DNA of 11,120 bases from a virus (taxonomy: Duplodnaviria > Heunggongvirae > Uroviricota > Caudoviricetes): the IMG/VR virus record IMGVR_UViG_2675903255_000012. One strand, written 5' to 3'. Below are positions 1-10,848 of the stretch, in pieces. Under the pieces are notes generated by a model. The model searched no databases and was not told the DNA's origin. It was given only the letters and a program-made list of their open reading frames with translations. Every line of letters begins with the position of its first letter. The stretch's first letter is position 1. The translations under genes were made by a program, and so were the position numbers.

Positions 1-505
<505 letters not shown>

Positions 506-867: not shown

Positions 868-1560
868 TTAATTATGTCTCTTAAGGGTTTGCGACTGACT
901 GATTAAGACCTTTCCAAAGACCATGAATCGGTGTTCGTTTTCGCTAGTAATTCCCCATTCACGGTAAATCTGGTTATCAGAAATCACCAGCAGTTTGTCA
1001 GGAATCATTTGAAGTCTTTTAACGTATATTTTGTCATCAAAACCAAAGACATATATACCATCACCATCAAACTGATTGATGCTGACATCAACGAAGATGA
1101 GATCTCCTGGCTCAATGGTTGGACACATACTGTCCCCACGAACGTTGATAACTTTGATGTGATTGGCTGGTCGTCCGCCGAACATTGATACAGCATTATC
1201 AGTTCTGTATTCGATGGCATGAATCACATCAATGACATCACCGCCCTGGATAAGGCCATTTCCCGCACTGGCACTGATATCCAGCATTTCAATACGGAAC
1301 ACATCCTTCACCTGCGCAACATCCTCATTATTACTGTTTTTATATACAGTATTACTTTTGTGGGCAGAGGTAAAGAGATCAGCAATATCAACACCTAAGC
1401 TCTTGGCAATATTACTCAGTGTTTGTTCGGTAAATTGTTTTTGCTTACCCGTTTCTAAGCGCGAGATGTTCGCCGCATCTACTCCTATCGCTTCAGCGAG
1501 ATCGGCGATTTTCATGTTCTTCGCTTGGCGAAGTTGTCTGACTCGGTTTCCTATGTTCAT
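868..1560 (-). CDS. cI: Prophage repressor cI (N-terminal HTH, C-terminal S24 LexA-like autopeptidase domain)
   Basis: N-terminal XRE-type HTH (KIADLAEAIGVDAANISRLETGK), candidate Ala-Gly cleavage region (SASAGNG), and S24 catalytic motifs (GDSMCPTI…, downstream KR). Divergent from cro. ATG sits directly after a promoter-like TTGCTT-N17-TGTAAT on the minus strand, so a leaderless mRNA as in lambda pRM is possible. Confidence 0.88.
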   Translation of the reverse strand: MNIGNRVRQLRQAKNMKIADLAEAIGVDAANISRLETGKQKQFTEQTLSNIAKSLGVDIADLFTSAHKSNTVYKNSNNEDVAQVKDVFRIEMLDISASAGNGLIQGGDVIDVIHAIEYRTDNAVSMFGGRPANHIKVINVRGDSMCPTIEPGDLIFVDVSINQFDGDGIYVFGFDDKIYVKRLQMIPDKLLVISDNQIYREWGITSENEHRFMVFGKVLISQSQTLKRHN

Positions 1561-1657: not shown

Positions 1658-1918
1658 ATGCAATCACCATTACGAAATGTGCGTAAGGCGCATGGTTTCA
1701 CTTTGCAGCATGTTGCTGCGGGTGTTCAAGTCAATCCAGCGACGTTGAGTCGTATTGAGAGGCTGGAGCAGATTCCATCTATCGAGCTTGCAGAACGTTT
1801 AGCCAATTTTTTTAAGGGTGAAGTCAGCGAAATGCAGATTCTTTATCCGGCACGTTTTCAATCTAGCCAAAACCAGAATGGGTTTAAACCACAGGAACAG
1901 GAGGTGAACCGTGGGTAA
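1658..1918 (+). CDS. cro: Cro-like HTH regulator
   Basis: Small protein with HTH (FTLQHVAAGVQVNPATLSRIE), divergent from cI, first gene of the rightward operon; GGAGG upstream of the ATG. Confidence 0.75.
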   Translation: MQSPLRNVRKAHGFTLQHVAAGVQVNPATLSRIERLEQIPSIELAERLANFFKGEVSEMQILYPARFQSSQNQNGFKPQEQEVNRG

Positions 1919-2462
1919 GCATCACTGGAAAGTAGAAAAACAGCCTGAGTGGTACGTGAAAGCTGTCAGAAAAACTATCGCAGCGTTGCCGGGGGGGTAC
2001 GCTGAAGCTGCTGACTGGCTGGATGTAACAGAGAACGCATTATTTAACCGCCTTCGTGCCGATGGCGATCAGATTTTCCCGCTGGGATGGGCAATGATTT
2101 TGCAACGTGCTGGTGGAACTCACTTCATTGCTGACGCTGTGGCGCAGTCTGCAAATGGCGTCTTTGTGTCTCTTCCTGATGTCGAGGATGTGGACAACGC
2201 CGATATCAACCAACGCCTGCTGGAGGTCATTGAACAGATCGGCAGTTATTCAAAACAGATTCGTTCAGCAATTGAAGACGGTGTAGTGGAACCGCATGAG
2301 AAGACAGCAATTAACGACGAGCTGTACCTCTCAATTTCGAAGCTGCAGGAGCATGCAGCACTGGTCTACAAAATTTTTTGCATTTCAGAAAGTAATGACG
2401 CCCGCGAGTGTGCAGCTCCGGGCGCCGTGGCGTGTCGTGACTGTGGAGAAACTAACGCATGA
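1911..2462 (+). CDS. CII-like early regulator (YdaT/CP76-type), GTG start
   Basis: Position immediately after cro with an 8-nt overlap; AGGAGG 6 nt upstream of GTG. Family assignment is from memory of CII-like/YdaT-type proteins following cro-like genes, not from a search. Confidence 0.45.
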
Positions 2463-2797
2463 ACAGTTTAACAACACACTACCGTCGCTCGCAACTGATT
2501 GCACTTCCTGTACCGGGTGGAAAAGCGAAGGTGGAGTATTGCTATGCAGTGAATGTACCAGGTGACAGGGAAATTGTAACCCACAGCTTTGCAGAGTGGG
2601 CTGTGGGTGATTTCAACAGGCAAAAGGAGACAGTCCTTTGCGACAAGTTAACCGCTGGTTCAAAGATCACTACGGAGTGCCCGTCAGAGTCATTCGTTGG
2701 GAACCGGAAACACAACGGGTTATCTACCTCCGCGAAGGCTATGAGCATGAGTGCTTCAGCCCGCTCGAACAGTTTCGTCGTAAATTCAGGGAAATAG
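2459..2797 (+). CDS. Hypothetical protein; the 3' half looks non-protein-like, so this may be a frameshifted gene
   Basis: ATGA start/stop overlap with the upstream gene suggests translational coupling. The N-terminal ~65 aa look like real protein; the C-terminal part (…[22 protein letters not shown]) looks like out-of-frame translation. Confidence 0.35.
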
Positions 2798-2817
2798 AGG
2801 TCGGTCATGAGCACTAA
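2638..2817 (+). CDS. Small hypothetical protein (59 aa, TTG start), or the C-terminal part of a frameshifted gene begun at 2459
   Basis: Frame +1 is open 2611-2817 and translates to a protein-like sequence (…[54 protein letters not shown]). AAGGAG at 2624-2629 sits 8 nt upstream of TTG 2638; the stop overlaps the O-like start at 2807. Not in the ORF track (below length cutoff). Confidence 0.4.
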
Positions 2818-3748
2818 ATTAACCGGCTATGTATGGGATGGTTGCGCTGCGTCAGGCATGAAGTTATCCAGCGTGGCAATTATGGCCCGCCTGGCTGATT
2901 TCAGTAATGACGAAGGTGTGTGCTGGCCATCAATTGAAACCATTGCCCGCCAGATTGGCGCGGGGATGAGCACCGTCAGAACGGCTATCGCACGGCTGGA
3001 AGCAGAAGGCTGGTTAACGCGTAAGGCGCGTCGCCAGGGTAACCGCAATGCGTCGAATGTTTATCAGCTTAACGTTGCGAAGCTTCAGGCAGCGGCATTT
3101 TCTCAACTGTCAGATTCTGACCCGTCAAAATCTGACGCATCAAAATCTGACCCGTCAAAATTTGATGCGTCGAAATCTGGCAAAAAAGCGGGTTTTCACC
3201 CGTCAGAATCTGGCGGGGATCCGTCAGTAAAATCAAAACATGATCCGTCAGATAAAAAACCTTCTCGTCCGGACGCTTCGCAACCGGACACGCAGACGGA
3301 TGAACAGGATTTTTTAACTCGCCATCCTGATGCGGTTGTATTCAGCCCTAAAAAGCGCCAGTGGGGGACGCAGGATGATTTGACCTGTGCACAGTGGCTC
3401 TGGAAAAAAATCATCGCCCTGTACGAGCATGCCGCCGAATGTGACGGCGAGGTGGTTCGTCCCAAAGAACCGAACTGGACAGCCTGGGCAAACGAAATTC
3501 GCCTGATGTGTGTGCAGGATGGTCGTACTCATAAACAAATCTGCGAGATGTACAGCCGCGTCAGTCGCGATCCGTTCTGGTGCCGTAACGTGCTCAGCCC
3601 GTCGAAGCTGCGGGAAAAATGGGATGAGCTTTCCCTGCGCTTATCGCCGTCCGTCAGCACGTACACCGAAAAACGCGAGGACCCGTACTTCAAAGCCAGT
3701 TACGACAACGTGGACTACAGCCAGATCCCGGCAGGATTCAGGGGGTGA
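2807..3748 (+). CDS. Replication initiation protein (lambda O-like: N-terminal winged-HTH, repetitive linker, C-terminal DnaT-like domain)
   Basis: Position after the cro/CII module; N-terminal HTH (SSVAIMARLADFSNDEGVCWPSIETIARQIGAGMSTVRTAIARLEAEGWL); an iteron array is embedded in the region encoding the low-complexity linker, as in lambda O. Confidence 0.7.
   Translation: MSTKLTGYVWDGCAASGMKLSSVAIMARLADFSNDEGVCWPSIETIARQIGAGMSTVRTAIARLEAEGWLTRKARRQGNRNASNVYQLNVAKLQAAAFSQLSDSDPSKSDASKSDPSKFDASKSGKKAGFHPSESGGDPSVKSKHDPSDKKPSRPDASQPDTQTDEQDFLTRHPDAVVFSPKKRQWGTQDDLTCAQWLWKKIIALYEHAAECDGEVVRPKEPNWTAWANEIRLMCVQDGRTHKQICEMYSRVSRDPFWCRNVLSPSKLREKWDELSLRLSPSVSTYTEKREDPYFKASYDNVDYSQIPAGFRG
3105..3262. 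repeat. Origin-like iteron array inside the O-like gene: about 4-5 tandem ~15-bp units (AAAATCTGAC[C/G]C[G/A]TCA) plus further CCGTCAG copies, followed by an A/T-rich stretch
   Basis: Visible tandem periodicity at 3110-3180 (tctgacccgtcaaaa / tctgacgcatcaaaa / tctgacccgtcaaaa / tttgatgcgtcgaaa); CCGTCAG at about 3200, 3221 and 3245; A/T-rich taaaatcaaaacatgatccgtcagataaaaaac at about 3228-3260. Confidence 0.65.
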
Positions 3749-3750
3749 GC

Positions 3751-4239
3751 ATGAGTCTTTTGAATGACGTTCAGAAATTCATTGAAGCCCATCCGGGCTG
3801 TACTTCCGGAGACATTGCGGATGCTTTTGCAGGTTACTCACGGCAGCGCGTTCTGCAGTCTGCAAGCAAGTTACGTCAGAGTGGGCGTGTGGCTCACCGT
3901 TGTGAAGGGGATACACGCAGACATTTCCCGCGCCTGACTGAGAGAGCGCAGGAGCCGGAACCACAACCAGTTCGTGAAACCAGACCTGTGCGCAATTTCT
4001 ATGTCGGCACTAACGATCCCCGGGTGATTTTGTGCCTGACCCGCCAGGCTGAAGAACTGGAGTCCAGGGGCTTATACCGTCGTGCTGCAACGGTGTGGAT
4101 GGCGGCATTCCGTGAAAGCCACTCCCAGCCAGAACGAAACAATTTTCTGGCGCGTCGTGAGCGGTGCTTACGGAAAAGCAGCAAGCGCGCTGTATCGGGT
4201 GAAGAGTGGTATCTGTCAGGGAATTACGTGGGGGCTTAA
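3751..4239 (+). CDS. PerC-family-like transcriptional regulator with an N-terminal winged-helix-like domain (start may be GTG 3745)
   Basis: C-terminal segment …LESRGLYRRAATVWMAAF…RRERCL… matches the PerC/Pch signature (LE-[KR]GL-x-RRAA-x-W) as I remember it. Overlaps the O-like stop. Confidence 0.5.
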   Translation: MSLLNDVQKFIEAHPGCTSGDIADAFAGYSRQRVLQSASKLRQSGRVAHRCEGDTRRHFPRLTERAQEPEPQPVRETRPVRNFYVGTNDPRVILCLTRQAEELESRGLYRRAATVWMAAFRESHSQPERNNFLARRERCLRKSSKRAVSGEEWYLSGNYVGA

Positions 4240-4892
4240 TGAGTAATAAATATTGCCAGGCGCTGGTGGAGCTGCGGAACAAACCAGCCCATGAACTGAA
4301 GGAAGTGGGCGATCAGTGGCGCACGCCGGACAACATTTTCTGGGGAATTAACACCCTGTTTGGCCCGTTTGTTCTGGATCTGTTCACTGACGGTGATAAC
4401 GCCAAATGTGCCGCTTATTACACTGCGGAAGACAACGCGCTGGCGCATGACTGGTCAGAACGTCTTGCGGAGCTTAAAGGTGCTGCCTTTGGTAATCCCC
4501 CATACAGCCGCGCCAGTCAGCATGAGGGGCAATACATCACCGGCATGCGTTACATCATGAAGCATGCCAGTGCCATGCGTGATAAAGGCGGGCGCTATGT
4601 TTTCCTGATCAAAGCTGCCACCAGCGAAGTGTGGTGGCCGGAAGATGCAGATCATATTGCTTTTATTCGCGGGCGTATTGGTTTTGAACTGCCTGCCTGG
4701 TTTATCCCGAAGGATGAGAAGCAGGTGCCGACAGGCGCTTTCTTCGCTGGTGCTATTGCTGTTTTCGACAAGACCTGGAAGGGACCGGCAATCAGCTACA
4801 TCGGGCGCTATGAACTTGAGGCATGTGGTGAGGCCTTTCTGGCGCAGGTTCGCCAGCAGGCAGAAAAACTGGTCAGGGAGATGGCGGCATGA
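4239..4892 (+). CDS. Phage Dam-family N6-adenine DNA methyltransferase (orphan)
   Basis: …GDQWRTPDNIF… N-terminal motif and NPPY catalytic motif (AFGNPPYS) typical of phage Dam-type MTases; TAATG stop/start overlap with the upstream gene; no restriction endonuclease partner nearby. Confidence 0.75.
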   Translation: MSNKYCQALVELRNKPAHELKEVGDQWRTPDNIFWGINTLFGPFVLDLFTDGDNAKCAAYYTAEDNALAHDWSERLAELKGAAFGNPPYSRASQHEGQYITGMRYIMKHASAMRDKGGRYVFLIKAATSEVWWPEDADHIAFIRGRIGFELPAWFIPKDEKQVPTGAFFAGAIAVFDKTWKGPAISYIGRYELEACGEAFLAQVRQQAEKLVREMAA

Positions 4893-5215
4893 CGACGTTA
4901 ACTCAATGCCAGCAGCAGGTGCTGGATATGCTGATTTCTTATCAGAAAGAACGTGGCTTCCCGCCAACCAATCAGGAGGTGGCAACCATGCTGGGATACC
5001 GTTCAGTGAATGCAGCGGTGGAGCATCTTCGCGCACTGGAGAAAAAAGGCGTCATCACGATAAAGCGTGGCGTGGCCCGGGGGATAACGCTTCATATCGC
5101 GGTGAAGGACGACGACAGCGAGGCGGTCGGGATTATCCGCGCACTGCTTGCCGGTGAGGAAAACGCAAGGCTGCGTGCAACCCACTGGTTACATGAGAGG
5201 GACCTGAAAGTATGA
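4889..5215 (+). CDS. LexA N-terminal DNA-binding-domain homologue lacking the S24 peptidase domain
   Basis: Alignable by eye to the LexA N-terminus (LTQCQQQVLDMLISYQKERGFPPTNQEVATMLGYRSVNAAVEHLRALEKKGVI versus LexA [53 protein letters not shown]); only 108 aa, no Ser/Lys peptidase domain. Confidence 0.7.
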   Translation: MTTLTQCQQQVLDMLISYQKERGFPPTNQEVATMLGYRSVNAAVEHLRALEKKGVITIKRGVARGITLHIAVKDDDSEAVGIIRALLAGEENARLRATHWLHERDLKV

Positions 5216-5601
5216 AGCTGATCCTGCCTTTTCCGCCCAGCGTGAACACGTACTGGCGACACCCCAACAAAGGGGCGTTTGCTGGTAAGAGCCTGATAAG
5301 CGCGGCGGGGCGAAAATTCCAGAGCGCGGCGTGCGCAGCAATAGTTGAGCAGTTACGTCGTCTGCCGAAACCAACGTCGGCACCTGCTTCAGTGGAGATC
5401 GTGTTGTTTCCTCCGGATAACCGGATCCGCGATCTGGACAACTATAACAAGGCGCTGTTTGACGCCCTGACCCACGCGGGTGTGTGGGAAGACGACAGTC
5501 AGGTGAAAAGAATGCTGGTGGAGTGGGGACCGGTTATCCCGGAAGGGAAGGTCGAGATCACTATCAGTAAGTACGAGAAAACGGCGGGTGCAGCCGCCTG
5601 A
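5212..5601 (+). CDS. rusA: Holliday junction resolvase RusA
   Basis: RusA signature …RDLDNYNKALFDALTHAGVWEDDSQV…; about 129 aa; ATGA overlap with the upstream gene. Confidence 0.88.
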   Translation: MKLILPFPPSVNTYWRHPNKGAFAGKSLISAAGRKFQSAACAAIVEQLRRLPKPTSAPASVEIVLFPPDNRIRDLDNYNKALFDALTHAGVWEDDSQVKRMLVEWGPVIPEGKVEITISKYEKTAGAAA

Positions 5602-5620: not shown

Positions 5621-6430
5621 ATGAATAATCTGATGGTCATTGATGGTATTGAAGTTCGTCGTGATGCTTATGGGCGTTACAGCCTGAACGATCTGCATCG
5701 CGCAGCAGTAGCATCTGGTGCAAATGCCAGAACCAAGGAGCCGGGAAAGTTTCTTTCCAGCCAACAAACTGTTGAGCTTGTTCATGAATTGACCAACACC
5801 CAGAATTTGGGTGTTGACCCGGTGAGTGTGATTCATGGGGGAAATGAACGGGGAACGTATGTCTGCAAGGAACTGGTGTATGCCTATGCAATGTGGATCA
5901 GCCCGTCATTCCATCTGAAGGTGATCCGTACTTTCGATATGGTAACCAGCGCACCGGAAAAATTATCCGGACAGGCTGCTGACAAGATGCAGGCTGGCGT
6001 GATCCTGCTGGACTTTATGCGCCGGGAGTTAAACCTGTCTAACTCTTCAGTGCTTGGTGCCTGTCAGAAACTCCAGGAGGCTGTTGGCTTACCGAATCTG
6101 GCACCGCGCTATGCCATTGATGCTCCTGCTGACGCGCCTGATGGCTCAAGCCGCCCCACGCTATCATTGAGTGCACTGCTGAAGCAGTATGGTATCCGCC
6201 TGACAGCTAATCAGGCATATCACCAGATGGCGAAGCTGGGGATCGTTGAACAACGTGAACGATACAGCCGCACTGCGATTAACAACATCAAAAAATTCTG
6301 GTCGCTGACAGCGAAAGGCTGCATGTTCGGCAAGAACATCACCAGTCCCGCAAATCCGCGCGAGACGCAGCCGCATTTCTTCGAATCCCGATTCCCTGAG
6401 CTGTTAAAGCTGCTCGATACCGTTCATTGA
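5621..6430 (+). CDS. KilA-N domain protein (antirepressor-like DNA-binding protein)
   Basis: N-terminal KilA-N-like region (IDGIEVRRDAYGRYSLNDLHRA… YAYAMWISPSFHLKVIRTF); AAGAGGAG SD 9 nt upstream of the ATG. Confidence 0.7.
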   Translation: MNNLMVIDGIEVRRDAYGRYSLNDLHRAAVASGANARTKEPGKFLSSQQTVELVHELTNTQNLGVDPVSVIHGGNERGTYVCKELVYAYAMWISPSFHLKVIRTFDMVTSAPEKLSGQAADKMQAGVILLDFMRRELNLSNSSVLGACQKLQEAVGLPNLAPRYAIDAPADAPDGSSRPTLSLSALLKQYGIRLTANQAYHQMAKLGIVEQRERYSRTAINNIKKFWSLTAKGCMFGKNITSPANPRETQPHFFESRFPELLKLLDTVH

Positions 6431-6431
6431 G

Positions 6432-7427
6432 GTGACCGTGAGAGCACTACTGACTCCTGAAATTGCCCCGCGTATGGGGATCGTATTGTTCAGGCCAGGT
6501 TCAGAGCTGATGCCCCTGTTTATGCAGGGGCGTGTCCTGCTGGAGCCTGAGCCGGAACGTTATTCATCTTTCGCCAGTGGTGCCGTTCCGGCGGCATCAC
6601 AACCGCTGGCGGATGATCCTGCCGTTCGGGCCGTGTTCCGCAATGAGGCAGTGATCCGTCGTGCTGGTGGCGTGGAATGTCTTGAAAGCTGGTTACTTCG
6701 TGAAAAAGGCTGCCAGTGGCCTCATTCCGACTGGCACAGCGAGAACATGACCACAATGCGACACGCTCCGGGCGCAATCCGTCTGTGCTGGCACTGCGAT
6801 AACCAGCTGCGCGATCAGTTCACGGAACGGCTGGAATCAATGGCAACGGATAACTGTGCCCGCTGGGTGTTGTCTGTTGTGCGTCGGGATCTCGGTTTTG
6901 ATGACAGTCACGTTGTGACAATGCCGGAACTGTGCTGGTGGCTGATTCGTAATGACCTGGCGGATGCCTTACCGGAAAGTGCAGCCCGTAAGGCACTTAG
7001 ATTACCGAAGCCTGTTGTGCCGTCTGTTACCCGGGAAAGTGACCTTGTGCCTTCGGTTCCTGCCACCAGCATCATCCAGGATAAAGCGAAAAAGGTGCTG
7101 GCGCTGAAAGTGGATCCTGAGTCGCCGGAGTCTTTTATGTTACGCCCAAAACGTCGCCGCTGGGTTAATGAAAAGTACACGCGCTGGGTTAAGACACAGC
7201 CGTGTGCATGTTGTGGAAAGCCTGCTGATGATCCCCACCACCTGATAGGTCACGGTCAGGGAGGAATGGGTACAAAAGCGCATGACCTCTTTGTGTTGCC
7301 TTTGTGCAGAAAGCATCACGACGAGCTGCATGCGGATACCGTGGCATTTGAAGAGAAGTATGGCTCCCAGCTGGAGCTGATATTTCGTTTTATCGATCGT
7401 GCGCTGGCAATAGGCGTACTGGCGTAA
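6432..7427 (+). CDS. DUF968-like phage protein with a C-terminal Cys/His (HNH-like) motif; GTG start uncertain
   Basis: C-terminal CACCGKPADDPHHLIGHGQGGMGTKAHDLFVLPLCRKHHDELH; lies immediately upstream of Q, as I recall ydfU-quuQ does in the K-12 Qin prophage. Start codon position is uncertain (GTG 6432, GTG 6438 or a downstream ATG). Confidence 0.55.
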   Translation: MTVRALLTPEIAPRMGIVLFRPGSELMPLFMQGRVLLEPEPERYSSFASGAVPAASQPLADDPAVRAVFRNEAVIRRAGGVECLESWLLREKGCQWPHSDWHSENMTTMRHAPGAIRLCWHCDNQLRDQFTERLESMATDNCARWVLSVVRRDLGFDDSHVVTMPELCWWLIRNDLADALPESAARKALRLPKPVVPSVTRESDLVPSVPATSIIQDKAKKVLALKVDPESPESFMLRPKRRRWVNEKYTRWVKTQPCACCGKPADDPHHLIGHGQGGMGTKAHDLFVLPLCRKHHDELHADTVAFEEKYGSQLELIFRFIDRALAIGVLA

Positions 7428-7440
7428 GTGGAGAACGAGC

Positions 7441-8193
7441 ATGAACTTTGAAGCCTTACCGAAATATTACTCCCCAAAATCTCCAAAATTGAGCGATGAC
7501 GCACCGGCGACAGGCTCTGGTGGTTTAACAATTACGGATGTAATGGCTGCGCAGGGGATGGTGCAGTCGAAAGCACCGCTTGGGTTTGCCTTATTCCTGG
7601 CAAAAGTTGGTGTTCAGGATCCTCAGTTTGCGATTGAAGGTCTGCTCAATTACGCGATGGCACTGGATAACCCGACATTGAACAAATTGAGTGAAGAAAC
7701 CCGGCTACAGATCATTCCTTACCTTGTGAATTTTGCCTTTGCTGATTATTCCAGGTCTGCGGCAAGTAAGGCTCGCTGTGAGCATTGTGCTGGTACTGGA
7801 TTTCATGATGTATTGCGCGAGGTGGTGAAACACTCCAGAAGCGGGGAATCTGTTATCAAGGAAGAGTGGGTGAAGGAACTGTGTCAGCATTGTCATGGTA
7901 AGGGAGAAGTCAGCACAGCGTGCAGAGGGTGTAAGGGTAAAGGTATTGTCCTGGATGAAAAAAGAACCAGGCTTCATGGCACGCCTGTTTATAAGGTTTG
8001 TGGGCGTTGCAATGGAAACCGGTTTAGCCGTTTACCAACCACACTGGCGCGGCTTCATGTCCAGAAGCTGGTACCAGACCTGACGGATTATCAGTGGTAC
8101 AAAGGATATGCAGATGTCATTGATAAACTGGTTACAAAGTGCTGGCAGGAAGAAGCGTATGCTGAGACACAATTGAGGAAAGTGACGAGATGA
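7441..8193 (+). CDS. Late-gene antitermination protein Q (phage 82/Qin QuuQ-like)
   Basis: 250 aa with Cys-rich zinc-binding motifs (CEHCAGTG…CQHCHGKGE…CRGCKGKG…CGRCNGN); followed within 60 bp by a strong promoter and a short-transcript terminator, the pR'/tR' arrangement. Confidence 0.8.
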   Translation: MNFEALPKYYSPKSPKLSDDAPATGSGGLTITDVMAAQGMVQSKAPLGFALFLAKVGVQDPQFAIEGLLNYAMALDNPTLNKLSEETRLQIIPYLVNFAFADYSRSAASKARCEHCAGTGFHDVLREVVKHSRSGESVIKEEWVKELCQHCHGKGEVSTACRGCKGKGIVLDEKRTRLHGTPVYKVCGRCNGNRFSRLPTTLARLHVQKLVPDLTDYQWYKGYADVIDKLVTKCWQEEAYAETQLRKVTR

Positions 8194-8224
8194 ATGATTT
8201 TCGACGAAAATGGCGACATGATGC

Positions 8225-8253
8225 TTGCATTTTTCAAAAAAAATGGATAATAT
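8225..8253 (+). promoter_or_regulatory. Late promoter pR'-like (TTGCAT-N17-TAATAT), presumed site of Q engagement
   Basis: Near-consensus sigma70 hexamers with 17-bp spacer, just downstream of Q and upstream of a terminator. Confidence 0.6.
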
Positions 8254-8301
8254 TTTCTCAATGATAGGCATTGTGTGTCCGGCTTTAATAAAAAGTAGAA
8301 A

Positions 8302-8327
8302 ACCCGCTGATGTGCGGGTTTTTTTTC
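8302..8327 (+). terminator. tR'-like rho-independent terminator
   Basis: ACCCGC-TGATGT-GCGGGT hairpin followed by an 8-T run. Confidence 0.75.
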
Positions 8328-8347
8328 GGAATTTTAGATGTGTGGCA

Positions 8348-8377
8348 TTGAAATGGTATTCGGCGAGTAGGTAGAAT
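8348..8377 (+). promoter_or_regulatory. Candidate autonomous promoter of the cargo cassette (TTGAAA-N18-TAGAAT)
   Basis: Sigma70-like hexamers located between tR' and the cargo ORF. Confidence 0.45.
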
Positions 8378-8404
8378 TTAAACTTTCGTCTCGTCTGGAT
8401 CGAC

Positions 8405-8947
8405 ATGATGTTTCAAGCCTTCCAAACAGCAGTATTTAAAAATGTTGCAGAGTATTTAAAAGGGCGCTTCCCTCATAAGTCGTTAGGGCTCGTATATGCC
8501 GACGAGCTGGTACTAAAAGATATGGAGTTCCTCAAGGCTAACAATAAACTGCGGTGGGATCCCGGACTAAAGTCGCGAGTGTTTATGGATATGATGGAAG
8601 AACACCCGATAAAACTAGTTGTTTATTATCGTGGGGAGCCTATTGGATTTGCATTTGGGTGTTACTGTAAGCCGAAAAATGCGGTGCATATTTGCTGGAT
8701 GGAAAAACGTAATGATGCACATGAAGACCTAGACCATCAGATGCTTGGTATCGTTTTGGATTGCTTCTCTGCATATGCACGATTTCTGAACCTTCAGGGT
8801 GAATCTATTGATTCGATAGCTTTAGTTAGTCCAGTTGATGGGGCAATAAGATACTATACTGAAAGTGGTTTTGAGTACATTGCTGATTACGAACGAGGTG
8901 GTTGCGCAATGGTGCTTAGGAGCGTTTTACCTAACCAATCAGTGTGA
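8405..8947 (+). CDS. Cargo (moron) protein, 180 aa, GNAT-fold-like putative acyltransferase; function unknown
   Basis: AT-rich with atypical codon usage compared with flanking phage genes; C-terminal region resembles the GNAT motif (…SIALVSPVDGAIRYYTESGFEYIADYE…) and β-strand-like KLVVYYRGEPIGFAFG, but the canonical R/Q-x-x-G-x-G/A acetyl-CoA motif is not evident. Confidence 0.45.
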   Translation: MMFQAFQTAVFKNVAEYLKGRFPHKSLGLVYADELVLKDMEFLKANNKLRWDPGLKSRVFMDMMEEHPIKLVVYYRGEPIGFAFGCYCKPKNAVHICWMEKRNDAHEDLDHQMLGIVLDCFSAYARFLNLQGESIDSIALVSPVDGAIRYYTESGFEYIADYERGGCAMVLRSVLPNQSV

Positions 8948-9138
8948 GTTAGATTCTTAATTTCTCCAGAATCATTACAAAAGTATTGAAAACCTCTTTT
9001 AGTTGATGCAATCTGGATCCACACAAAGCACACACAAAATGTACTACGCTTTACTTTATACATCTTCAGGTAACAAACTTTGTTGCCTTTATGCTTCAAA
9101 GAAGCAACTACAGCTTAGTGCTGAACAAGGGGATTTTT

Positions 9139-9324
9139 ATGAAACATCATGAGCAGATAGAGATTGAGGCAGCTAAAGTCGTCGCCGAACTCTTTGCTGG
9201 CAATGCATCTCCAATGGAAACCTTTGGTATTACATGGAGTCAAACTCAGATGTTAGAGCGTAAGAATCCTGGTGTAGTGATCAAACTAGTACCGGATGAC
9301 GGTAAAAAACTTGCGTATTGCTGA
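9139..9324 (+). CDS. Small cargo protein (61 aa), hypothetical; candidate partner of the 8405-8947 gene
   Basis: AAGGGGA SD 5 nt upstream of the ATG; AT-rich; followed by a terminator; same orientation and same cassette as the GNAT-like ORF. Confidence 0.4.
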   Translation: MKHHEQIEIEAAKVVAELFAGNASPMETFGITWSQTQMLERKNPGVVIKLVPDDGKKLAYC

Positions 9325-9383
9325 TAATTTTTAAAGATTTTTTCAGCTAGAGAATCGATTATTTTACTATAAATCGCGAAGGA

Positions 9384-9410
9384 GCCCCACATATTGTGGG
9401 GCTTTTTGTT
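9384..9410 (+). terminator. Rho-independent terminator closing the cargo cassette
   Basis: GCCCCACA-TAT-TGTGGGGC hairpin followed by TTTTTGTTT. Confidence 0.7.
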
Positions 9411-9581
9411 TCATCTTAGTTAGCCGTTATTCACATTCACTACTTTGCTACTTATCCACTGTAAAAATAAATTGTGAATTATTTTGTGGCTTATTGTTAG
9501 TGTTCTATCAATTTTGTGTGTGATATTCCATTGGCGTGGTTATTATCTGTGCATCGCACTTAAATGTATAAAGCTCACTAG

Positions 9582-9956
9582 TTGAGACAATCCTACCACC
9601 AGTTGGTGGTATCTCATGATTCACTGAATTGCAAATCTTCTGAATTGCTGGATGAGTTTAAATCTCACCGGCGCTATTTCTCCGTATCAGTCTCCGTGCC
9701 TTATACCGATGTCAGGACGCATAAGCCCGTTCAGTTCTACCCGGGTAAACATCCGTGCGAGAAACCGGCGGATATGCTCAGGCAAATAATCAATGCCAGT
9801 AGTCGACCTGGTGATCTGGTTGCTGATTTCTTTATGGGATTCGGTTCCACAATAAAAGCAGCAATGGCGCTGGGGCGTCGGGCGTTAGGTGTTTAACTTG
9901 AGTCAGAGCGGTTTAATCAGACGGTGAAAGAGGTAAGTGAACTGGTGGGGAAATAA
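9582..9956 (+). pseudogene. 3' remnant of an N6/N4 DNA methyltransferase gene (C-terminal motifs only), interrupted by an in-frame TAA at 9894
   Basis: …GKHPCEKPADMLRQIINASSRPGDLVADFFMGFGSTIKAAMALGRRALGV carries the HP-x-x-KP and FxGxG AdoMet-binding motifs that sit at the C-terminus of beta-class MTases; no DPPY-type N-terminal half upstream (AT-rich non-coding DNA). The frame continues protein-like after the TAA (LESERFNQTVKEVSELVGK). Confidence 0.55.
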
Positions 9957-10032
9957 TTCTGGTGGCCACGTTGCGTGGCCTTTTTATTTCCAACACAGCA
10001 CCCGCAAATATCGCGAGGTGAGAGATGACGAA

Positions 10033-10368
10033 ATGCCTCATAACCCAAATACCTGGCCGGACTGGCTGGAGTTGTTTCAGAGCTGGTGGCGTGGAGACAC
10101 ACCGCTGGGTGCAGTGATTATGTCGATCGTTATGGCTGGTTTGCGCATCGCCTATTTTGGCGGTGGTGGTGGCTGGAAGCGAAAAACGCTCGAGATTTTG
10201 CTATGTGGCGCTCTGACGCTGACCTTTGCATCCGCTCTTGAGTATGTCGGATGGCCTAAATCACTTTCTGTTGCCATTGGTGGTGGGGTGGGGCTGATCG
10301 GTGTCGATGCTATTCGTGGGGCTGCAATGCGAGTAATCGGTAACAAATTTGGTGGCTCTAAGGAGTAA
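10033..10368 (+). CDS. S: Class I holin (lambda S family); start codon tentative
   Basis: Three hydrophobic segments and a charged C-terminus, alignable by eye to lambda S (GAVIMSIVMAGLRIAYFGGGG versus GAILAFAMAYLRGRYNGG); immediately upstream of R. Confidence 0.7.
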   Translation: MPHNPNTWPDWLELFQSWWRGDTPLGAVIMSIVMAGLRIAYFGGGGGWKRKTLEILLCGALTLTFASALEYVGWPKSLSVAIGGGVGLIGVDAIRGAAMRVIGNKFGGSKE

Positions 10369-10371
10369 TTT

Positions 10372-10848
10372 ATGCAGGTACTAAATTCCCAGCGTAAAGC
10401 TTTCCTTGATATGGTGGCTTGGTCAGAAGGAACGGATAACGGACGACAACCGACACGTAACCACGGTTATGACGTTATTGTCGGTGGTGAACTCTTCACT
10501 GATTACTCCGATCACCCTCGCAAACTTGTCACGCTAAACCCCAAACTCAAATCAACAGCCGCCGGACGTTACCAGCTTCTTTCACGTTGGTGGGATGCTT
10601 ACCGTAAACAGCTTGGTTTGAAAGACTTCTCCCCCAAAAGCCAGGACGCTGTGGCATTGCAGCAGATTAAAGAACGTGGCGCTTTACCGATGATTGATCG
10701 TGGTGATATTCGTCAGGCTATCGACCGTTGCAGCAATATCTGGGCTTCGTTGCCGGGCGCTGGTTACGGTCAGTTCGAGCATAAGGCTGACAGCCTGATT
10801 GCAAAATTCAAAGAAGCAGGCGGAACGGTCAGAGAGATTGAGGTATGA
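10372..10848 (+). CDS. R: Endolysin R (lambda-type lytic transglycosylase)
   Basis: 158 aa, near-identical to the lambda R sequence as I remember it (…[57 protein letters not shown]…). Confidence 0.93.

Follow-up and report, generated by a model that had tools for sequence, protein, structure and literature searches.

yfdN, a prophage gene for a predicted winged-helix/PerC-family protein, flanked by the genes of the replication initiator and of an adenine methyltransferase

The DNA analyzed here, referred to as the window, is a stretch of 11,120 nucleotides from a Caudoviricetes record and constitutes the immunity-to-lysis part of a lambdoid prophage (Table 1). The gene under study, yfdN, is located downstream of cro, a cII-like gene, and the gene of the replication initiator, and lies within the early-right operon behind an intact gene for an S24-type CI repressor. 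The same gene layout around yfdN occurs in SfV, ST64B, and F1055. Between positions 2400 and 5300, neither a sigma-70-like promoter (by a scan for the consensus only) nor a terminator on the + strand was detected by our scans. As yfdN has no detected promoter of its own and the repressor is intact, the gene should be expressed as part of the early-right transcript once the prophage is induced or a cell is infected. Profile searches revealed no P-, DnaC-, or DnaB-like gene in the module.

Table 1. Coordinates of genes, signals, and protein domains in the window
Feature	Position	Strand	Basis
IS3-family transposase fragment	14-478	-	
S24-type CI repressor, intact	868-1560	-	
Cro-like gene	1658-1918	+	
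CII/CP76-like gene	1911-2462	+	
DUF4222	2638-2817	+	
O-like replication initiator, 313 aa	2807-3748	+	HTH_36 and PHROG 391
Iteron-like direct repeats within the initiator gene, five to six x 15 bp, TCAAAATCTGACsCr	3095-3217		Repeat search
Conserved C-terminal tail of the initiator, aa 281-313, ...EDPYFKASYDNVDYSQIPAGFRG	3647-3745	+	
Shine-Dalgarno-like AGGGGG, 5 nt 5' of ATG 3751	3740-3745	+	Read from the sequence
yfdN-type CDS, PerC-family with N-terminal winged helix, 162 aa	3751-4239 (stop included)	+	ORF, Pfam PerC, and PHROG 1324
Predicted winged helix-turn-helix domain, aa 1-60	3751-3930	+	AlphaFold2, Foldseek (PDB/BFVD), weak PHROG 1687 match, dN/dS
Pro/Glu-rich flexible linker, aa 61-89	3931-4017	+	pLDDT ~59, no secondary structure
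PerC domain, aa 90-143, three helices	4018-4179	+	Signature A..LE.xGLYRRAATVW...R....RR..CL
C-terminal tail, aa 144-162, subfamily motif W.L(A/S)G.Y.G	4180-4236	+	pLDDT 54-75
Phage N6-adenine methyltransferase, Dam type	4239-4892	+	Pfam Dam PF05869, E 4e-45; TIGR01712, 253 bits
LexA DNA-binding domain only	4889-5215	+	
RusA	5212-5601	+	
KilA-N	5621-6430	+	
DUF968/HNH	6432-7427	+	
Q antiterminator	7441-8193	+	
AT-rich stretch	about 8000-9500		
Holin	9937-10368	+	
Endolysin	10372-10848	+	

An earlier note, made from the DNA letters alone, had placed an open reading frame at 3751-4239, and this frame was confirmed: it runs on the + strand from ATG 3751 to the TAA codon at 4237-4239 and encodes 162 amino acids. 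The AGGGGG hexamer at 3740-3745 represents a good Shine-Dalgarno site for this ATG and lies within the last codons of the upstream initiator gene, which suggests that translation of yfdN is coupled to that of the initiator. The PGAP/RefSeq annotation starts the gene at GTG 3745, resulting in a protein of 164 aa. We consider ATG 3751 the better start, because in the alignment all relatives, down to 25% identity, possess the N-terminus MS(L/I/M). The ATG starts 2 nt after the stop codon of the initiator gene (TGA, 3746-3748), and the ATG of dam at 4239 overlaps the yfdN stop codon in the sequence TAATG. Thus, yfdN is tightly packed between its neighbors. Among 77 distinct E. coli-type alleles, the dN/dS ratio was 0.15 overall, with values of 0.10 for the winged helix, 0.09 for the PerC domain, 0.21 for the linker, and 0.39 for the tail. 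We conclude that yfdN is a real, maintained gene and that both domains are under purifying selection (dN/dS ~0.1).

The gene is the known prophage gene yfdN, and its product is a member of the widespread, already annotated YfdN subfamily (PHROG 1324). The PHROG 1324 profile matched over the full length (aa 1-161, E 2.4e-78), and 159 of the 162 residues (98%) are identical to those of YfdN (b2357) from the cryptic prophage CPS-53/KpLE1 of E. coli K-12. The two genes share the RefSeq name and have matching neighbors. In K-12, however, yfdO is a 5'-truncated initiator gene and yfdM a truncated methyltransferase gene, whereas the window carries both genes in full length within an intact module of CI, Cro, cII-like gene, initiator, and Dam. 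Many chromosomes of O157:H7 contain the 489 bases of yfdN with 100% identity, and RefSeq labels the gene there "yfdN: PerC family transcriptional regulator". Prophages of the O157:H7 type match the window as a whole, and in one strain the matching prophage is located at tRNA-Thr beside proA. Among 5426 complete E. coli genomes, about half (2674), K-12 included, carry yfdN. The gene is carried on mobile elements, namely the lambdoid prophage module described here and deposited phage genomes. The latter include SfV (orf40, 96%), SfII, SfIV, mEp460, Ayreon, and Stx2c and Stx2a phages, all at 96-99% identity, as well as ST64B (Sb43, 68.5%) and Salmonella phage F1055 (46%). A HMMER search of 1.84 billion representatives yielded no more than 100 proteins with E-values of 0.001 or below, of which about thirty were full-length two-domain relatives with 25-48% identity and a few were short PerC-only proteins. 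PADLOC gave no defense-system match for YfdN.

Since yfdN already carries the PerC label in RefSeq and Pfam, its detection in the window confirms an existing annotation. The wording "transcriptional activator", used in its PHROG and RefSeq names, is inherited from PerC. Our literature search revealed no functional experiment on YfdN-type proteins: K-12 YfdN is found in overexpression and interactome screens only, and K-12 yfdN was deleted as a precaution, as a possible confounder, in a ler reporter strain (PMC5931665). We also considered whether the gene corresponds to pchE and rejected this identity, because the genomic context of pchE is different: pchE (ECs1588) forms a polycistron with ECs1586-1587 and is located ~675 nt downstream of its promoter.

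The domain architecture of YfdN was modeled with AlphaFold2 using an alignment of 32 relatives (mean pLDDT 86.9). The N-terminal 60 residues were confidently modeled as a winged helix, with helices at residues 3-13, 19-25, and 31-43 and wing strands at residues 47-52 and 55-60 (pLDDT 94-98). In a Foldseek search of the PDB, this part superimposed with 1.5-2.5 Å over ~60 residues on winged helices of the ArsR/SmtB, MarR, BlaI/MecI, and Fur types; the matches had a probability of 1.0 and E-values of only ~1e-2. Viral models in BFVD likewise gave winged-helix matches. The MarR profile PHROG 1687 matched weakly at residues 6-68, and none of the Pfam wHTH families reached threshold on YfdN. Full-length Foldseek searches of the PDB and BFVD yielded generic winged-helix matches and none to the two-domain whole, and the comparison with PDB sequences gave no match at E up to 10. 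The linker that follows differs in length and sequence among relatives and is gapped and unconserved in the alignment.

The three helices of the C-terminal half were modeled with a pLDDT of 95-98. Residues 98-150 matched positions 5-57 of the 90-position Pfam PerC profile (PF06069) with 37.3 bits (E 3.3e-9), which is above the curated gathering cut-off of 22.6 bits. BLASTP aligned YfdN with EPEC PerC from plasmid pMAR2 at 30% identity (17/56 aa, E 7e-7); the stretches A..LE.xG.YRRAA..W and RR..C are aligned in both proteins, and L103, R111, and A112 are invariant among the 32 relatives. Thus, the earlier note had correctly recognized both the PerC/Pch signature in the C-terminal half, for which the profile match is significant, and the winged-helix-like nature of the N-terminal segment. 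Judged by its sequence, the assignment of YfdN to the PerC family holds. The NCBIfam profile ANR_neg_reg (NF033650) also matched these helices (aa 96-142, 23.5 bits, E 3.5e-5), below its cut-off of 32 bits. The model of the PerC domain resembles TPR/MIT-like three-helix units. Such a fold is a generic protein-binding one that says nothing specific on transcription, and in this respect it counts against a transcriptional role of YfdN.

[quoted passage not shown] PerC and Pch, however, are small single-domain proteins, as is typical of the family (~90-105 aa; ~10 kDa according to a review, PMC5293775), and PerC itself has 89 aa, whereas YfdN consists of 162 aa and has an additional winged helix and linker. 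YfdN therefore represents a distinct two-domain subfamily, composed of wHTH, linker, and PerC domain, rather than a typical PerC/Pch protein. The wHTH-PerC layout is kept in relatives down to 25% identity, the two-domain relatives have the C-terminal consensus LAGxYxG, and G161 is near-invariant. A closer homolog of the PerC domain than EPEC PerC is EcCIMP1_025, encoded on a phage-inducible chromosomal island (PICI), with 45% identity and E 2e-11. This protein is again single-domain (93 aa), unlike YfdN, and its gene is located at the accessory end of the satellite. PerC and Pch genes, too, reside in accessory positions, whereas yfdN occupies a fixed position between the initiator and methyltransferase genes.

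The gene directly upstream of yfdN indeed encodes a replication protein, as the earlier note had stated. It matched HTH_36 (E 4e-11) and PHROG 391, "replication initiation O-like" (E 4e-135). The repeat search of the initiator gene revealed a family of iteron-like direct repeats, D1, which presumably marks the origin, and, beside it, the inverted repeats I1 and I2. The final nine residues of the initiator, SQIPAGFRG, are identical in eight of nine positions to the C-terminus of E. coli DnaT, SQIPPGFRG.

To describe the neighborhood of the gene more broadly, we collected 240 loci with a YfdN-family gene and analyzed the adjacent genes. Among the 170 loci found via YfdN itself, the upstream ORF is an initiator of at least 200 aa, belonging to two linked clusters, in 164 cases, and its end lies -4 to +11 nt from the YfdN start. 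The other six loci show contig ends or short upstream ORFs, two of which, with 122 aa, have the length of K-12 yfdO. Conversely, loci fetched via the initiator of phage mEp390 carry a YfdN-family gene at the initiator stop in 70 of 79 cases. Wherever the upstream gene was readable among the 240 loci, an initiator with a DnaT-like tail (...DYSxIPxGFRG) precedes the YfdN-family gene. The initiators themselves are diverse: HTH_36 occurs with or without Phg_2220_C, and some proteins have no Pfam match. The part that is constant comprises the last 25-33 residues, with the consensus D(G/P).F(K/R).S(F/Y).N.DYS.(I/V)P.GFRG. YfdN proteins that are at least 98% identical are paired with initiators of 313 aa, of 330 aa (66% identical), or of 272 aa (~30% identical). 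As far as we found, neither the order initiator-YfdN-adenine methyltransferase nor the DnaT-like tail of the initiator has been described in the literature searched.

Enough downstream sequence was available for 230 loci, and in 189 of them (82%) an N6-adenine methyltransferase gene is the first gene after the YfdN-family gene. The enzyme belongs to the Dam family (PF05869) in 110 loci, to MT-A70 (PF05063) in 74, and to D12 (PF02086) in five. Three Pfam families of methyltransferase at a fixed position represent a non-orthologous replacement. In a further 24 loci, the first gene encodes a LexA DNA-binding domain only, and small or unknown ORFs follow in 17. A general role in transcription would explain neither why YfdN so strictly adjoins the initiator nor why an adenine methyltransferase so often lies next to it.

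Natural losses of the gene were observed as well. In 7 of the 79 mEp390-type loci, among them mEp390, YfdN is absent, and the initiator is followed by the LexA-domain gene, with the methyltransferase absent, too. Phage cdtI has an in-frame internal deletion of ~400 bp in yfdN, which left a remnant of 31 codons and kept the TAATG junction to dam. In the Klebsiella phage ST147-VIM1phi7.2, an initiator ending with DTAFKSSYSDVDYSVPAGFRS is directly followed by Dam, without yfdN. All combinations of presence and absence of YfdN and methyltransferase thus occur. The mEp phages were reportedly isolated as plaque-forming phages, and the cdtI prophage was reported to be inducible. Since mEp390, cdtI, and the Klebsiella phage keep the initiator without an intact yfdN, we conclude that yfdN is an accessory, optional gene and does not encode a helicase loader.

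From these data, and no more firmly than tentatively, we infer that YfdN is a DNA-binding modulator of transcription in the lytic phase; the tentative wording applies to DNA binding, targets, and sign of the effect alike. In this model, yfdN is a dispensable delayed-early accessory gene of lambdoid phages of the SfV/ST64B/mEp460 type. Its transcription is that of the early-right operon, and translational coupling links it to the initiator on one side and to the adenine methyltransferase on the other. The protein would be synthesized after induction or infection and not in the repressed lysogen. The winged helix would anchor YfdN on DNA, and the PerC module would change transcription in the manner of stand-alone PerC, Pch, or ANR-type proteins, through contact with a protein partner or through interference with silencing complexes of the H-NS type. 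Pch relieves the silencing by H-NS, StpA, and Hha at LEE1 and binds to many chromosomal loci (PMC4764244). PchE represses curli and adhesins and affects flagella (PMC6265319, PMC7369912), and the PerC-like protein of the PICI silences LEE1 (PMC11773190). As members of the PerC family either activate or repress, the direction of regulation is not fixed in the family.

An alternative that we regard as unlikely is that YfdN is an accessory of the replication module and cooperates with the preceding initiator, where it might help to recruit the helicase (DnaB-DnaC) as an adaptor or modulate this recruitment or the activation of the origin. The TPR-like PerC domain could possibly dock on the DnaT-like tail of the initiator. 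The strict adjacency described above is in line with this idea: a tail-bearing initiator lies upstream in 164 of 170 loci, the 70 YfdN-family genes next to mEp390-type initiators are retained though their products are only ~25% identical to YfdN of the window, and the deposited phage records that contain a tail-bearing initiator are nearly the same as those that contain YfdN. Moreover, the tail is the sole constant part of the initiator, and the module is devoid of a P-, DnaC-, or DnaB-like gene. On the other hand, nearly the same YfdN (98% identity or more) coexists with initiators that are ~30% identical to each other, and YfdN is thus not specific for the initiator body or the iterons. In mEp390, in the Klebsiella phage, and in cdtI with its internal yfdN deletion, initiators with the tail function in the absence of YfdN. 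The resemblance of the tail to the C-terminus of host DnaT points to a host partner, and the initiator may engage the host machinery itself. In addition, the stand-alone PerC genes of PICIs are found in accessory positions and not beside the primase gene. No literature linking PerC to phage replication or methylation was found in our search.

In its map position right after an O-like initiator gene, to which it appears translationally coupled, yfdN resembles the genes of lambda P, DnaC-type loaders, and lambda Ren. With lambda P and DnaC, however, YfdN shares no similarity in sequence, profile, or fold, and yfdN is dispensable in nature. Searches of Pfam, PHROGs, NCBIfam, and PDB sequences gave no match to a helicase-loader family (lambda P, DnaC/IstB-like). 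The idea that YfdN supplies the missing loader was rejected as the main reading, on the grounds of the YfdN-less phages with the same initiator type and of the DnaT-like tail that the initiator itself possesses. On the lambda map, ren is an accessory gene after the initiator, and yfdN behaves likewise.

The downstream neighbor raises the question of whether YfdN is a partner or regulator of the adjacent N6-adenine methyltransferase, governing its synthesis via translational coupling or targeting or modulating methylation of phage DNA. We consider this improbable. The high frequency of methyltransferase genes from three Pfam families at one position, the overlap of stop and start codons that persists even in the cdtI deletion, and the joint absence of YfdN and methyltransferase in mEp390-like loci would all be compatible with such a partnership. 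The two genes nevertheless occur apart: 24 loci have the LexA-domain gene directly after YfdN and no methyltransferase, and the Klebsiella phage and cdtI have a methyltransferase without YfdN. For SfV, a promoter of dam within orf40 was predicted by the depositors of the sequence; if this promoter is real, dam would be transcribed on its own. Furthermore, the loci are phylogenetically related, and the conserved order may be inherited.

The earlier note had also suggested that YfdN might act as a prophage-borne regulator of host genes, given that PerC-family proteins activate ler and LEE virulence genes, or else serve a role within the phage. Its structural observations, namely PerC domain, winged helix, and position after the replication gene, were upheld, whereas LEE activation is disfavored by the position in the operon, the spread to mostly LEE-less hosts, and the weak effect of homologs on ler. 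In a broader form, YfdN would be a prophage-encoded regulator of lysogenic conversion whose targets, ler/LEE or other host loci, are activated in the way known from PerC and PchABC. This appears to us a doubtful proposition at best, and lysogenic conversion through the LEE in particular is unlikely. The PerC domain itself, the origin of the window from an O157:H7-type prophage, the many host genes regulated by PerC and Pch (PMC5293775, PMC4764244), and the precautionary deletion of K-12 yfdN in the ler reporter study (PMC5931665) can be cited in its favor. However, yfdN belongs to a repressor-controlled early-right operon, our scan detected no promoter of its own, and the gene is carried by about half of E. 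coli, including K-12, and by Shigella and Salmonella phages; most of all these hosts are without the LEE. Activation of ler has been shown for PerC and PchABC; YfdN is just 30% identical to PerC within the PerC domain and has an extra DNA-binding domain. PerC homologs outside the PchABC group cause little or no ler activation, with PchD and PchE hardly affecting ler (PMC5931665), and the PICI homologs showed either no effect or repression, one of them repressing LEE1 (PMC11773190). EcCIMP1_025, PchD, and PchE do not activate LEE1 but repress it or act on other targets. For these reasons, we infer that a lytic-phase role within the phage fits the anatomy of the locus better than lysogenic conversion via the LEE.

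It is equally hard to favor the view that YfdN is an ANR-like anti-activator, whose helical domain binds and inactivates an AraC-type factor or H-NS without acting on promoters itself. The ANR family (e.g., Aar, NF033650) consists of small helical protein-binding modules, and its profile shows weak similarity to YfdN over the same helices. The TPR-like fold of the helical domain is of a protein-binding type, and the closest stand-alone homolog examined (45% identity) silences LEE1 and was suggested by its authors to be ANR-like (PMC11773190). Yet the ANR match stays below its cut-off, whereas the PerC profile exceeds its own, and ANR proteins are very small, single-domain, and without a DNA-binding domain, while the wHTH of YfdN suggests an action on DNA.

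Least probable of all, and frankly speculative, is the proposal that the PerC domain is a TPR-like peptide-binding module that docks on the DnaT-type tail (...DYSxIPxGFRG) of both the initiator and host DnaT, so that YfdN, anchored on DNA, would modulate either the recruitment of the primosome or helicase to the phage origin or the restart of host replication.

The gene is of modest importance, for two reasons: yfdN is very common, being carried by about half of the complete E. coli genomes and by phages that convert to Stx2c production or change the Shigella serotype, and other proteins of the PerC family are known to regulate virulence in these hosts. Our analysis of its context argues against assuming that YfdN activates the LEE. 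The conserved gene order and the DnaT-like tail of the initiator offer testable leads, and docking on this tail, if true, would link the PerC family to replication as well as to transcription.

The conservation among highly divergent replication initiators encoded upstream of YfdN-family genes, with similarity between initiators ranging from ~30% identity to no detectable similarity, was limited to the C-terminal tail. In the O-like initiator of the window, eight of the nine terminal residues are shared with E. coli DnaT, a primosomal protein whose C-terminus reads SQIPPGFRG. The tail may act as a peptide on which a host replication protein docks, and it may account for the lack of a helicase-loader gene in the module. 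Further upstream, the initiator gene carries 15-bp direct repeats, some of them paired as inverted copies, and the repetitive PSKSD linker of the initiator is their coding product. The repeats look like an iteron-type origin, which is likewise housed within the O gene of lambda.

Table. Features in and around the replication module and the region preceding the lysis genes (window positions, except where a phage is named)
Feature	Position	Strand	Details
IS3-family transposase fragment	14-478	-	rve integrase core; left end, adjoins immunity region
Direct repeats	3095-3217		15 bp, five to six copies, TCAAAATCTGACsCr; within initiator gene
Initiator tail	3647-3745		last 33 codons of 2807-3748; C-terminal end ...EDPYFKASYDNVDYSQIPAGFRG
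Methyltransferase gene	4239-4892	+	slot after yfdN
LexA DNA-binding domain-only protein	4889-5215	+	108 aa; PF01726, E 3e-19
Q-type antiterminator	7441-8193	+	DnaJ-like CXXCXGXG zinc-finger stretch N-terminal to Antiterm domain
AT-rich stretch	~8000-9900		GC 37-42%; between Q antiterminator and lysis genes
180-aa ORF	8405-8947		PHROG 11949, unknown function
Small ORF	9091-9324		within AT-rich stretch
N6_N4 DNA methylase	9582-9896		5'-truncated; within AT-rich stretch
yfdN remnant, phage cdtI (NC_009514)	L091 3081-3175		31 codons; in-frame internal deletion of ~400 bp

The HMMER search for YfdN relatives revealed a protein of 214 aa (P0183) with two tandem winged-helix domains followed by one PerC domain, an arrangement that points to modularity of the wHTH-PerC architecture. 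In phage cdtI, the TAATG junction at which yfdN overlaps dam has survived at the end of the yfdN remnant, as though coupled translation of the methyltransferase gene were being maintained. Across loci L001-L250, the slot after the YfdN-family gene is occupied by N6-adenine methyltransferases from three Pfam families, namely Dam (PF05869), MT-A70 (PF05063), and D12 (PF02086). This variety at a fixed map position is non-orthologous replacement. The LexA-type protein encoded next lacks the S24 peptidase domain and could be an uncleavable LexA mimic; conservation of its gene extends to SfV (orf42), mEp390, cdtI, and many related loci. The IS3-family fragment is missing from some prophages that are identical in other respects.

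The zinc-finger stretch of the Q antiterminator matched PF00684 with 31.1 bits, slightly below the cut-off of 32.7. In the AT-rich stretch, the 180-aa ORF gave neither a Pfam nor a PADLOC match. Stx phages carry stx at the equivalent map position, and the AT-rich stretch is thus likely a moron region.
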